From Escherichia phage Murica, in sequence record NC_041871.1: a DNA stretch of 64,000 nt. The stretch is one strand, 5' to 3'. Position 1 is the first letter of the stretch. Each line of letters opens with the position of its first letter. The position numbers and the translations under genes were made by a program. The notes below the pieces were generated by a model. The model was not told where the DNA came from, searched no databases, and saw nothing but the letters and a program-made list of their open reading frames with translations. Shown here in pieces: positions 20,547 through 32,994 of this stretch.

Positions 20547-21392
20547 TTATGCCAGTGCAGCCTCAAAATCTTTCATCATATTTTGGAAAGTTTTTGCCTT
20601 ACTTAAGGTAACACCGTGCTCTTTGGCGAAGGTTTGGAGTGCATCTTTTGAACCACTTTTGTCATCTTCGTTGTTAAGAGCTGCGGCCTGCTGCAGTATG
20701 GCATCAATATCACTGCGAGAAGATCTTGATTCTTGTGCCTGTTCAGGATCCTGCTCAGTGCCTCCCGGTGCAGCCGGATCTGGGGATTCTTCACCGTCAC
20801 CACCAGGTTCAGTAGGACCTACAGGCGGCTCCGGTTCTGGTTCAGGCGGTGGAGCTATTGTAGAAACCAGTCCAAGATTTACAACCTGAGAACGTTTCTT
20901 AGGCCACTCAATGGTGAAAGTTTGGGTATCTTCTTCATAAACAATGTTGCATTGCTCATCGTTTATGGTCACTTTTTTAGGCATCCCTACAGGGTCCCAT
21001 AGATGGCCCTCTGCCACGGAAACTTGGAAAGCAGCATCTACCTCTTTAAACACTGACGGGGTGAGTGTGATATTGACATCCCCGCTTTGCAGTGTTAAAG
21101 TGCTTTCATCAAGGTTCTCTGTGAAGAACAGAAGAATAACACCCATACGGATAGTTGAAATACCAGTATCAATTGGCAGGCCTGTATGTTTTGCAATCTT
21201 CTCGAAGAAGTCTACAATCGTTCTGCACGGATAGTGAACACTGCCAATAACGAATTCTGTTGGTGGCAGCAGGGCTGATAAACCAACATTGATTTCTGGG
21301 TTATATTGTGCTAAAAATTGATAAAAACTTAACTGATTGTTGAAAACTCTTAATAGAGGATCATACTCAACTGGATATACGGCTCTCTTCAC
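20547..21392 (-). CDS. hypothetical structural protein with Pro/Glu-rich linker (PPPEPEPEPP)
   Basis: 281-aa ORF, GTG start with AGGAG RBS; low-complexity linker encoded at 20763-20855. Confidence 0.45.
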   Translation of the reverse strand: MKRAVYPVEYDPLLRVFNNQLSFYQFLAQYNPEINVGLSALLPPTEFVIGSVHYPCRTIVDFFEKIAKHTGLPIDTGISTIRMGVILLFFTENLDESTLTLQSGDVNITLTPSVFKEVDAAFQVSVAEGHLWDPVGMPKKVTINDEQCNIVYEEDTQTFTIEWPKKRSQVVNLGLVSTIAPPPEPEPEPPVGPTEPGGDGEESPDPAAPGGTEQDPEQAQESRSSRSDIDAILQQAAALNNEDDKSGSKDALQTFAKEHGVTLSKAKTFQNMMKDFEAALA

Positions 21393-29155: not shown

Positions 29156-29246
29156 TGGCGGAGAGTAATGGAATCGAACCATCATCGAGTCATCCTCAAC
29201 GGGACGGTTTTCAAGACCGCTTGAGCACCATTGCTCCCTACCCTCC
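29156..29246 (-). tRNA. tRNA-Ser (anticodon UGA), type II
   Basis: 91 nt, acceptor GGAGGGT/ACTCTCC, anticodon loop CTTGAAA, long variable arm, T-loop TTCGATT, CCA. Confidence 0.8.
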
Positions 29247-29360
29247 TTTATAAATTATACTGATAATGACACTGATTTTCGAGCAGTTAGTGACTAGTAT
29301 AAACGACGATAAATATCAATGCCATTATCTGTATTATTTATGCATCTAAAAATATAAATT

Positions 29361-29447
29361 TGGTGGGGAGTGGTGGAGTCGAACCACCCGAGTCGCAATG
29401 ACAATAGATTTACAGTCTACACCGCTACCTCTACGGGATAACTCCCC
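29361..29447 (-). tRNA. tRNA-Tyr (anticodon GUA), type II
   Basis: 87 nt, acceptor GGGGAGT/ACTCCCC, anticodon loop CTGTAAA, long variable arm, T-loop TTCGACT, CCA. Confidence 0.8.
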
Positions 29448-29451
29448 AATT

Positions 29452-29526
29452 TGGCACCCCGTACTGGACTCGAACCAGTGTCAACGGCTTAGAAGGCCGC
29501 TGCTTTATCCACTAAGCTAACAGGGC
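29452..29526 (-). tRNA. tRNA-Arg (anticodon UCU)
   Basis: 75 nt, anticodon loop CTTCTAA, T-arm ACTGG-TTCGAGT-CCAGT, acceptor with two G-U pairs, CCA. Confidence 0.75.
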
Positions 29527-30624: not shown

Positions 30625-30834
30625 TCAACAGATTCCGGCCTTATCCTTCCTGTCTGCGTATTCTTTAATCGCAACCTCATCTGCATTAGTGACCAGGTCT
30701 TCAAAGTAACTCTCAAGCTCCTCGTCAATGTCAGGAGACCAGCTCTTTTTCCTGTCAGTGTGAATTGCAGACTTGTTGAACTTATTACAGTTCTTTGCTA
30801 CCGGGTTGTTCATTAAGCGCTCCTCAGCGTTCAT
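30625..30834 (-). CDS. hypothetical small protein
   Basis: 69-aa ORF, coupled to the upstream gene. Confidence 0.35.
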   Translation of the reverse strand: MNAEERLMNNPVAKNCNKFNKSAIHTDRKKSWSPDIDEELESYFEDLVTNADEVAIKEYADRKDKAGIC

Positions 30835-31402
30835 AGTAAATCTTATTTAACATTACCTCATCCTTTGCAGAAAGGATATCAAGATATGCATCACCAAATC
30901 TTCCTGCAACAACCTCTGCATGATACATCACTTCGTTAACATCGTCAAGAGTGATAACCGGATGACCATATCTTTCTGAATATTGTCTCAGGGTGCGATG
31001 TAACGAGTCGTCATCATATGCAGACTTTTTAATATCACAAACACGACGAATAGCCTTGATGTCGAAAAAACCTGTGCGATACCACCCAAGAAAAAGGTTT
31101 CGTGCAGTGTCAACATCTACATTGATACCATCAAGAACCTTATCTACAAGATAGCTGTCATCCTTTGGACCAGCGTCCTTAGTGCGAATGTAGTTGCCAT
31201 CTTTTCCAGGCGACATCTCCTTCTCATCCCCAACATGCATGCCATCATTTGGCGGTGTTAGCCACTTATCCGGATGCTTACGATCACGAGCGTTAGAATG
31301 ATTACGCTGGAAACCTGGCTTCCACTTGAAAGTTTTCTCCATCTGTTCTTCATTCTGATAACGTTTTGCAATCTTTTCACGGTCATCTTTGCGTGGACTC
31401 AT
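30824..31402 (-). CDS. hypothetical protein
   Basis: 192-aa ORF with a strong GAGGAGG RBS. Confidence 0.5.
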   Translation of the reverse strand: MSPRKDDREKIAKRYQNEEQMEKTFKWKPGFQRNHSNARDRKHPDKWLTPPNDGMHVGDEKEMSPGKDGNYIRTKDAGPKDDSYLVDKVLDGINVDVDTARNLFLGWYRTGFFDIKAIRRVCDIKKSAYDDDSLHRTLRQYSERYGHPVITLDDVNEVMYHAEVVAGRFGDAYLDILSAKDEVMLNKIYYER

Positions 31403-31884
31403 AGCTGCCTCCTCTTCAAGTTATAGAAAAACTCGCTGTATCGCTTTGTAACGAGCTTTTCTATCAAACTGGTGCGATTGCCTTACTTGGTATAGTTTAT
31501 ATGGCTGTGGAGCGATTTAGGGGCCTCATTGTCCGTTTCCACACATAAACTTTATCCAAACTCGCGCGGGAGGCTCTCAACCGACTCCTTACGGCGCTGG
31601 CAAGCTTTCGTCGGTGGTCCACATTAGTGCTCGGCCTTTGGCCTGCGCCGCTTCGCTCCCACACATGTTAACAGACCTGCATGTGTGCACTATGGAGGCC
31701 CGGCATCTCGCCCCTCGTAGGCGAGTGCCAATGAAGGGCCGACACTACCTATAGAAAGTAATAAATTTAAAACATGGTACTTAGGATCTAGTATATTCTA
31801 CATAAGTTAAGTATATGTACTTAGTACCATAAGTACTAGATCTTTTATTTTTTATTATTTAGTTATTTTAGTTATATTCTTTAT

Positions 31885-31967
31885 GTGTCCGTATCACGGA
31901 CAGTTAGTGTCCGTATTACGGGCAGATGTGTCCGCGTGACGGACAGTGGTGTCCGTATCACGGACAG
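31885..31967. repeat. four tandem copies of a palindromic 19-bp iteron (GTGTCCGTATCACGGACAG), period 21-22 bp
   Basis: copies at 31885-31903, 31907-31925, 31928-31946 and 31949-31967; each contains inverted half-sites GTCCG-N5-CGGAC. Confidence 0.85.
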
Positions 31968-32041
31968 TTAATAGTTTCTGTTCCATGGTGAACATAAAAC
32001 ATACAAACCCTTATAGTACAGATATTTAAGTTTTTACTGGT

Positions 32042-32392
32042 CTAACCAGTTGTTGACATTCGAATAACTTCTTCTGGTGGCAAAACTTTGGAAAATGTGC
32101 ATCTTTTACCTCTCCCTTGTGTGGATGTTTCAACCACTCCTGCACATTCTAAAGTTTTAACGCACGCTGCTGCTTTTGTTTTCTTTATCCCAACATCTGC
32201 TGCAATTTTCCTTGTGCTTGGTGTGAAGCGGGAATTTCCTCCAAGCTTATACCAGTTGTGCAGGTAGCAGTATACAATCTTGTCATACAAGTCAAGAACA
32301 ACAACCTCCCCAGTTGTGTCATTCAAAACTTTTGACATAGATAGTATTTCAAGGGGGACTTTAAGATATAGCAGCTTATCCCCATCTTTCAT
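32042..32392 (-). CDS. putative helix-turn-helix DNA-binding protein
   Basis: 116 aa with AGGAGAT RBS; HTH-like segment STRKIAADVGIKKTKAAACVKTLECAGVV; lies next to the iteron array. Confidence 0.4.
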   Translation of the reverse strand: MKDGDKLLYLKVPLEILSMSKVLNDTTGEVVVLDLYDKIVYCYLHNWYKLGGNSRFTPSTRKIAADVGIKKTKAAACVKTLECAGVVETSTQGRGKRCTFSKVLPPEEVIRMSTTG

Positions 32393-32439
32393 ATCTCCTG
32401 ATTCTCCTTGTGTGGCAATTTTCTTTAAAATAGCAGGGA

Positions 32440-32994
32440 TTACTCCCTGCTGTCAATATCAAAACTCATTGCAATACGGTATGCCTCTTCTAATGGTAAG
32501 AGTCTCCCCCACACATCCCAACCGACATCAAGCTGCCTGCCAAACAACTGTTGTGTGGTTCCGTGAGCATGACCGAACAGTTGGACTGATCCGTGAGGCT
32601 TTCTGTTCCACTTTGCAAACTGGTAATGGCTCATACAGATCAAATTCTTGTTGTGGCGAAGCTCGTAATAATCTACAACCTCATGACCGAACTCTTTCAT
32701 AATTCTGACAGTCGTCCTTGTGTCATGGTTGCCACGAACAAGAATAATATGTCCGTTCAACATATTTAGAATATCTGGAAGTAAGTTGTTGATATTCTTA
32801 TCATTAGTGCACGCAATATCTCCCAGGTGGAACACAGTGTCTGCAGGTGACACAACGGAGTTCCACTCGGTGATGATTCCCGCATTCATACTGTCAAGAT
32901 TGTGATCATATTGAGATCTGTGTTTTTGACATGAATCAAACTCCATGACCCGCTGGTGGAGAAAGTGCGTATCGCTTGTTACAAAGTATTTCAT
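32440..32994 (-). CDS. calcineurin-like metallophosphoesterase (putative polynucleotide 2',3'-phosphatase)
   Basis: motifs SDTHF, GDIACT and GNHD; ORF track 32440..33099 trimmed to ATG at 32992-32994 with GAGGAA RBS. Confidence 0.65.
   Translation of the reverse strand: MKYFVTSDTHFLHQRVMEFDSCQKHRSQYDHNLDSMNAGIITEWNSVVSPADTVFHLGDIACTNDKNINNLLPDILNMLNGHIILVRGNHDTRTTVRIMKEFGHEVVDYYELRHNKNLICMSHYQFAKWNRKPHGSVQLFGHAHGTTQQLFGRQLDVGWDVWGRLLPLEEAYRIAMSFDIDSRE

Follow-up and report, generated by a model that had tools for sequence, protein, structure and literature searches.

In the replication origin of phage lambda, an AT-rich tract that undergoes unwinding directly borders four iterons, and each iteron is an imperfect inverted repeat of 19 bp (PMC7466680). 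The number of iterons differs between lambda (four) and the Stx phages (six), and two iterons, combined with the AT-rich tract, are enough for unwinding (PMC7466680). A second described system is that of PLE, a satellite of Vibrio cholerae, in which the origin has iterons to which the RepA protein binds, and RepA drives PLE replication during ICP1 infection; the N-terminal domain of this protein is PDB entry 4RO3, and the iterons of the RepA_N group are semi-palindromic direct repeats (PMC7145576). The PLE replicon relies on a phage replisome of the gp4/PolA type (Barth et al. 2020, PMC7145576), and ICP1 is among the closest polymerase homologues of phage rV5 (PMC3606486). According to the rV5 genome paper, the origin of this phage could not be defined from skew (PMC3606486). 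A search of the searchable literature found no description of an rV5 origin or of the 13-kb satellite-like elements discussed below.

The locus described here lies in a 64,000-nucleotide stretch of Escherichia phage Murica (NC_041871.1), referred to as the window, whose numbering is used throughout. It is an intergenic region of 639 nt (31403-32041) that contains all of the non-coding elements described below. To its left is a gene of 192 aa to which no function has been assigned (30824-31402, - strand; rV5 ORF77), and to its right a gene encoding a 116-aa winged-helix/helix-turn-helix protein (32042-32392, - strand; homologue of rV5 ORF79/gp075). The segment 31400-32100 is 100% identical, in reverse complement, to Escherichia phage vB_EcoM-Pr121LW (MH752840.1) and 88-97% identical to 116 other Vequintavirus (rV5-like) records. 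Eighteen records deposited as "Campylobacter phage" (MG0656xx) match this E. coli phage region, with 89-97% identity among those listed, and are probably mislabelled. The 137.6-kb record CP057073.1 was deposited as a plasmid of E. coli; it shows 93% identity over the intergenic region and has the size of an rV5-like genome.

Several smaller features were found in and around the region. A conserved 13-nt inverted repeat, ATAGAAAAACTCG / CGAGCTTTTCTAT (31423-31464), lies in the leader, a short distance upstream of the ribosome-binding site of ORF77. On the - strand, a cluster of tRNA genes covers 29160-29526 and extends further left; two of its long-arm tRNAs give weak tRNA-Sec-like matches in Rfam, and related records annotate Ser and Tyr tRNAs for this cluster. 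In rV5, a putative ORF78 (gp074) is annotated at the position corresponding to 31497-31664 (- strand), overlapping the structured GC-rich core described below. Its frame is open, and it was considered as a coding gene and rejected: it is probably not coding because the changes among relatives are mostly non-synonymous and 90 nt are invariant. Another putative small ORF, Pr121lw_80 (31894-31995, - strand), crosses the repeat array and is doubtful.

All genes around 31403-32041 are oriented leftward, and transcription diverges at approximately 33.1-33.5 kb. The global minimum of cumulative GC skew was located at 32.2-33.45 kb of the window, 1.3-1.6 kb from the candidate origin. As this minimum coincides with the divergent transcription point and is explained by gene orientation, it cannot separate replication from transcription, and GC and AT skew were dropped as origin locators.

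The original prediction placed an almost entirely A/T tract at 31841-31884, next to an iteron array. This description is accurate: 40 of the 44 positions are A or T (91%), 31 of them (70%) being T on the + strand, and the tract runs straight into the repeats at 31885. No other 44-mer of the window, or of the whole 134,575-bp genome, has a lower GC content (4 G/C versus 7-8 in the next best). When duplex stability was calculated by the nearest-neighbour method, the least stable part of the genome was 31745-31895 with each of the window sizes used (40, 60, 100 and 150 bp); at 100 bp its value is -102.2 kcal/mol, whereas the genome averages -133.6 (sd 5.8) and the runner-up has -108.5. The composition and stability of the tract are far beyond chance. 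In iteron-type origins, an easily melted AT-rich region lies beside the repeats; the T-rich tract, which touches repeat 1, has this character in its sequence and predicted stability and is proposed here as a DNA-unwinding element.

The sequence GATCTTTTATTTT (31839-31851) overlaps the left edge of the tract and is the sole exact match in the genome to GATCTnTTnTTTT, the consensus of the E. coli oriC 13-mers. An arrangement of the oriC type, with three tandem 13-mers of GATCTnTTnTTTT, was not found, the copy at 31839 being the single exact one. With respect to DnaA boxes, only 9-mers with one mismatch were detected (at 31535 and 31552); these vary among the relatives and none is conserved. A search of the region for the IHF consensus was negative, and no IHF site is conserved among the relatives.

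To the left of the tract, two inverted-repeat pairs had been reported in the order A-B...A'-B', and both are present with the sequences and positions claimed. Arm A, ATGGTACTTAG (31774-31784), is complementary to A', CTTAGTACCAT (31820-31830), at 10 of 11 positions and is therefore imperfect, while arm B, GATCTAGTA (31785-31793), is complementary to B', TACTAGATC (31834-31842), at 9 of 9. A third, nested pair (TTAAGTA, 31807-31813; TACTTAG, 31818-31824) had been overlooked. The heptamer TAAGTAC/GTACTTA occurs ten times in the genome, and three of the ten copies fall within the 60 bp from 31777 to 31836; a cluster of this heptamer with a small nested hairpin is an equally good description of the block. 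Of 5000 shuffles of 31760-31884 that preserved dinucleotides, 18% contained a perfect inverted repeat of at least 9 nt; the number of 7-mer inverted seeds gave p = 0.08, and folding z-scores of the block were -1.6 to -1.7 on both strands. On their own, the inverted repeats are no better than chance. In phages Aya, TP4 and FFH2, changes in the arms either break pairs or alter both arms without restoring complementarity, and this absence of compensatory changes gives the hairpin idea no support. The cluster 31774-31842 may be a site for an auxiliary factor, or it may form a weak hairpin before the T run.

The repeats at 31885-31970 are four direct repeats of 21-22 bp, putative iterons of the adjacent RepA_N-like protein. 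Each contains one copy of a 17-bp palindrome, TGTCCGTATCACGGACA, with 7 + 7 bp inverted halves (TGTCCGT-nnn-ACGGACA). Their start-to-start spacing is 22, 21 and 21 bp, or two helical turns; the array is thus of the kind found in iteron origins, which have at least three direct repeats of approximately 17-22 bp in helical phase. A search of all 134,575 bp found no other match to the palindrome, at up to one mismatch, outside the array. That the palindrome is confined to one genome site speaks for one site acting in cis and against a dispersed operator. The number of repeats is two in phage YN3, three in FFH2, EdH4, TP4, nimi and a gut-metagenome phage, or else four, as in the window. Just right of the repeats is a conserved sigma-70-like element on the + strand, TGAACA-17-TATAGT (31989-32017), whose -10 sequence is TATAAT in Aya; it is directed antisense into the 3' end of the 116-aa gene.

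The 116-aa protein is annotated as a putative transcriptional regulator in GenBank and as a replication initiation protein in RefSeq. Even in very large protein sets its relatives are very few, and a search of viral contigs returned none. Among Pfam families, HTH_36 and DUF6945 score just under their cut-offs and RepA_N gives no match at E ≤ 0.1; among PHROGs, several families annotated as replication initiation protein match it. When PDB sequences were searched with phmmer, the sole significant match was 4RO3 (E = 3e-6), and a profile built from 16 family members matched the same entry with E = 3.8e-11. Structure prediction from the single sequence was unusable (pLDDT 39), and an AlphaFold model based on the family alignment reached a pLDDT of 82. 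With this model, Foldseek ranked 4RO3 first, followed by 4PQL, 4PT7 and 5KBJ, which are RepA_N initiators, one of them DNA-bound. The homology to 4RO3 identifies the 116-aa protein as a homologue of an origin-binding domain, and both the sequence match and the model place in it the N-terminal winged helix of the RepA_N/DnaD-NTD fold. The protein ends after this domain, and the C-terminal effector domain that is usual in RepA_N initiators is missing.

Upstream of the 116-aa gene is a sigma-70-like promoter on the - strand, TTGACA-18-TATTTT with a TG element (32427-32456), which is P76 in the rV5 record. Possession of its own sigma-70-type promoter suggests that the gene is expressed early, and transcription from this site would traverse the repeats and the tract. 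Relatives of the protein are also encoded on two metagenome contigs from other phage lineages (L047 and L048), where they are 182-195 aa long. There the gene opens an early operon next to a divergent intergenic region of about 490 nt, and genes for DNA polymerase A, RNA ligase and PhoH are nearby; near the homologues in these two lineages, no clear iteron array was seen.

Conservation was determined from an alignment of 11 Vequintavirus phages. Nucleotide diversity (pi) is 0.008 in the T tract and 0.019 in the AT/inverted-repeat block, compared with 0.100 at third codon positions of ORF77 and 0.10-0.34 in those short spacers of this intergenic region that are unconstrained. The tract and block are therefore 5-12 times less variable than synonymous sites, and this low diversity points to a constraint on sequence and not on composition alone. 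A more distant comparison is provided by a 137-kb metagenomic rV5-like phage (L018/L044) with the same gene order, whose ORF77 is 81% identical to that of the window. Its counterpart of the 116-aa protein is 143 aa long and only 28% identical (E = 7e-7), and its repeats are different palindromes, of the ATCTGATGCAAATATGTATCAGAT type. Gene and repeats have thus been replaced together, as expected of a binder and its sites. Between its repeats and the conserved GC-rich block, L018 has a T-rich tract of about 70 nt with the same polarity, and it lacks the A/B inverted repeats. Comparison with related phages, which had been put forward as a check on the origin layout, shows that tract and block are conserved within the genus and that in the divergent phage the T-rich tract is retained as a feature and the inverted repeats are not.

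The original prediction did not mention the GC-rich block further left (31563-31746), which consists of two covarying stem-loop elements with recurring CCCACACA punctuation. The structured core (31563-31665) contains a helix between 31572-31585 and 31610-31619 with covarying pairs, three of which are changed on both sides between phage and satellite-like elements and one more within the phages. The second element is a GC-rich hairpin, GGCCCGGCATCTCGCC...GGCGAGTGCC...GGGCC (31694-31746; pi = 0.007), also present in one satellite-like plasmid, NZ_CP020521.1, with 85% identity. One of its 16 predicted pairs was scored as changed on both sides, and direct reading reveals a second compensated pair (CTCGCC/GGCGAG in the phage versus CTCTCC/GGAGAG in the satellite). 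Folding z-scores of the GC block, -1.1 on the - strand and -2.3 on the + strand, are not decisive. As for the strand, the wobble pairs U15-G56 and G13-U58 of the core favour the + strand, and an A-C in Aya and L018 favours the - strand. Searches of the window region and of the satellite non-coding region against Rfam gave no family, a match to rli43 being below threshold and attributable to chance.

Small circular E. coli "plasmids" of 13.2-13.7 kb contain a non-coding stretch with about 84% identity to approximately 31563-31746, and two metagenome contigs also match. The family includes NZ_CP020521.1 (L017; 13,689 bp) and its relatives L016, L038-L041 and L043. In NZ_CP043822.1 (39.6 kb), the GC block is matched at three places, and this record looks like a trimer of a 13.2-kb element. 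The elements encode a major head protein and Dit-like tail, tail-completion and tape-measure proteins, the last three being 50%, 45% and 25% identical, respectively, to products of this phage; no terminase is found among their annotated genes. Judged by this gene content, the 13-kb elements look like satellites of rV5-like phages. In NZ_CP020521.1, positions 2563-2628 were compared with window 20697-20731: downstream of a near-consensus promoter (TTGACA-17-TATAAT) come 35 nt with 91% identity to the phage. The match is antisense to a phage ORF (20547-21392, - strand) and could represent an antisense RNA against a helper gene.

Because they were assembled as circular plasmids, the 13-kb elements presumably replicate autonomously. 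Each has a Rep gene of the O-like/DnaD-like kind, together with non-coding DNA of about 2.9 kb; this region beside the Rep gene is the most plausible origin of the elements. Its parts are arranged in the order GC core, hairpin modules, an AT-rich part or 12-mers, and then four to six palindromic iterons. The 12-mers are of the GATCTATT type (GATCT-type) and are present in two to three tandem copies before the iterons, and different satellite lineages have different iteron sequences. No non-coding sequence other than the GC core is common to the phage and all of the 13-kb elements, and in the satellites the core is followed by a strong intrinsic terminator on the + strand (11-bp stem, TTTCATTT, fold z = -5.2); a terminator 3' of the core hints at a transcript. 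At the protein level, phrog_8102, phrog_428 and phrog_270 are common to the 116-aa protein and the satellite Rep. By analogy, a candidate origin with this composition in the elements strengthens the origin reading of the phage module. Two shorter matches were discarded. The 10-mer TTAAGTATAT, shared by the phage block and the satellite AT repeats, was judged compatible with chance, and the 19-mer CGGCGCTGGCAAGCTTTCG, searched for in genome contigs, gave 19 matches in high-GC genomes, all of them due to chance, with flanks only about 25-30% identical.

Based on these results, we predict that rV5-like phages probably replicate from an iteron-type origin in which this block is the part that unwinds. 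An origin is the best-supported explanation for the T-rich tract and the repeat array, given the unique locus, the genome-wide stability minimum, the conservation, the homology to 4RO3, the joint exchange of gene and repeats in L018 and the parallel layout in the 13-kb elements. To this extent the proposal that this region has the layout of an origin stands, while the part of it that relied on the inverted repeats does not, as these are at chance level, show no compensatory change and are missing from L018. The 116-aa protein, expressed early, would bind as dimers to the four palindromic repeats on one helix face, and the resulting nucleoprotein complex would stress the adjoining tract (31841-31884) until it opens; supercoiling, and transcription from the gene's own promoter through the site, may aid this opening. 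A phage primase-helicase of the gp4 type and a family-A polymerase, or host factors, could then load at the opened tract and begin replication, with the cluster 31774-31842 and the GC block 31563-31746 serving as conserved accessories. Binding, unwinding, helicase loading and initiation are thus predictions drawn from the anatomy of the site. Some of the evidence points the other way: a purely compositional unwinding element would not need the exact-sequence conservation of tract and block, the protein has no C-terminal domain of the kind with which RepA_N and O-type initiators recruit replication factors, no clear iteron array was seen near the L047 and L048 homologues, and conserved DnaA or IHF sites are absent. 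Large lytic phages can also use several origins or initiate replication by recombination.

The same exact-sequence conservation fits recognition by a protein or an RNA, and the region might instead control transcription. The 116-aa protein would then be a repressor or roadblock acting on four operators, and a non-coding RNA of the + strand, begun in the GC core, would terminate at the inverted-repeat hairpin and its T run, or else the A-rich face would serve as UP-like element to a promoter on the - strand for ORF77 and the tRNA cluster. Such a role would suit a winged-helix protein, since many of its structural neighbours are regulators and its GenBank label is that of a putative transcriptional regulator, and it would suit the presence of TTTTATTTTTT directly 3' of B', the short hairpin that precedes the T run in L018 and the strong + strand intrinsic terminator that follows the homologous GC core in the satellites. 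In the phage itself, however, a scan of 31300-32500 found no intrinsic terminator; B/B' would form a 9-bp AT-rich stem with a 40-nt loop (fold z -1.7), and a T tract of 44-70 nt far exceeds what a terminator needs. No sigma-70-like promoter with at least 9 of 12 matches was found on either strand of 31403-31988, the nearest being 31989-32017 (+) and 32456-32427 (-). The palindrome is restricted to a single genome site that lies downstream of the protein's own gene and overlaps no promoter, and the closest characterised homologue of the protein is an initiator. We consider transcription control unlikely as the function of the region, and it could in any case coexist with an origin.

The sharing of the GC core, as the only non-coding sequence common to the phage and to all of the elements, which carry no annotated terminase, raises the question of a packaging or helper-satellite cis site, recognised by the phage terminase or another machine and with the AT block as a cutting or bending region. 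Satellites such as P4 and the cos-type islands share the packaging site of their helper. The rV5 genome has been reported as circularly permuted (PMC3606486), which implies headful packaging from a pac site. This explanation appears quite improbable to us: what the satellites share is the GC core only and neither the AT/inverted-repeat block nor the repeats, the covarying stems of the core suggest a single strand that folds and not a site recognised as duplex, and in each replicon the region is accompanied by an initiator-like gene and repeats particular to that replicon. Nor does the start or end of any record support a terminus, the start of MG065672.1 within the repeats being most simply an assembly break. 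That the region has no dedicated function, and is an AT-rich spacer with chance inverted repeats beside a tandem repeat, agrees with the chance-level inverted repeats and with a copy number that varies as in neutral arrays. It is nevertheless scarcely credible, as the diversity of the block is 5-12 times below that of synonymous sites, the block is the stability extreme of the whole genome, and the layout recurs in the divergent phage and in the satellites with different sequences.

The origin reading can be extended to a composite module in which a GC-rich structured element and an unwinding tract are joined to an exchangeable cassette of binder and iterons, the module being shared with the 13-kb elements. 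The GC element might be a cis site, or a transcript, that engages the same replication or packaging machinery in both, and the binder a minimal initiator with an N-terminal domain only. We put this forward tentatively, as possible rather than probable. The rV5-like phages (Vequintavirus) are widely used as candidates for biocontrol and therapy against O157 and other E. coli, and a candidate origin together with a candidate binder would open their replication to study and engineering by means of origin plasmids, replication-based reporters and conditional phages. The satellite link may matter more than the origin itself: the conserved structured element matches no known family, and a second Gram-negative phage-satellite pair built round a RepA_N-type protein, beside ICP1/PLE, is on offer.

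Among the known systems, lambda resembles the rV5-like site in having iterons with internal dyad symmetry beside an AT-rich tract, and the number of iterons varies among rV5-like phages as it does in lambda and its relatives. Lambda also has a palindrome beyond its AT-rich tract. Unlike the lambda origin, which is inside the O gene, the site described here is at least 71 bp downstream of the stop codon of the 116-aa gene. Lambda O has a C-terminal domain that recruits P-DnaB, whereas the 116-aa protein is a single domain; it matches no O-like family, and its link to O is indirect, through the PHROGs that it shares with the O-like-matching satellite Rep. The site is similar to iteron plasmids and to oriC in that an AT-rich unwinding region abuts an array of initiator sites. 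It differs from oriC in having one 13-mer instead of three and no conserved DnaA boxes or IHF site, and from iteron plasmids in that its repeats are palindromes while theirs are asymmetric.

The RepA_N plasmid initiators, such as RepA of pSK41 and pTZ2162 (4PQL, 4PT7, 4PTA and 5KBJ), are dimeric winged-helix domains on semi-palindromic iterons (PMC7145576). The 116-aa protein has no significant sequence match to them (E ~0.8), and it is without the host-specific C-terminal domain that they carry. The origins of RepA_N plasmids are located within repA. The PLE origin is like the one proposed here in that its binding sites lie in non-coding DNA and take the form of semi-palindromic direct repeats (PMC7145576). 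In contrast to PLE, the protein is encoded by the lytic phage itself and not by a satellite. It also differs from PLE RepA in comprising 116 aa only, with no C-terminal domain and no match to Pfam RepA_N, and the repeat sequence is unrelated to that of PLE. The origin candidate of the rV5-like phages thus joins a well-known kind, and what is unusual about it is that the binder has no more than the N-terminal domain and that apparent satellites share its structured GC-rich element.
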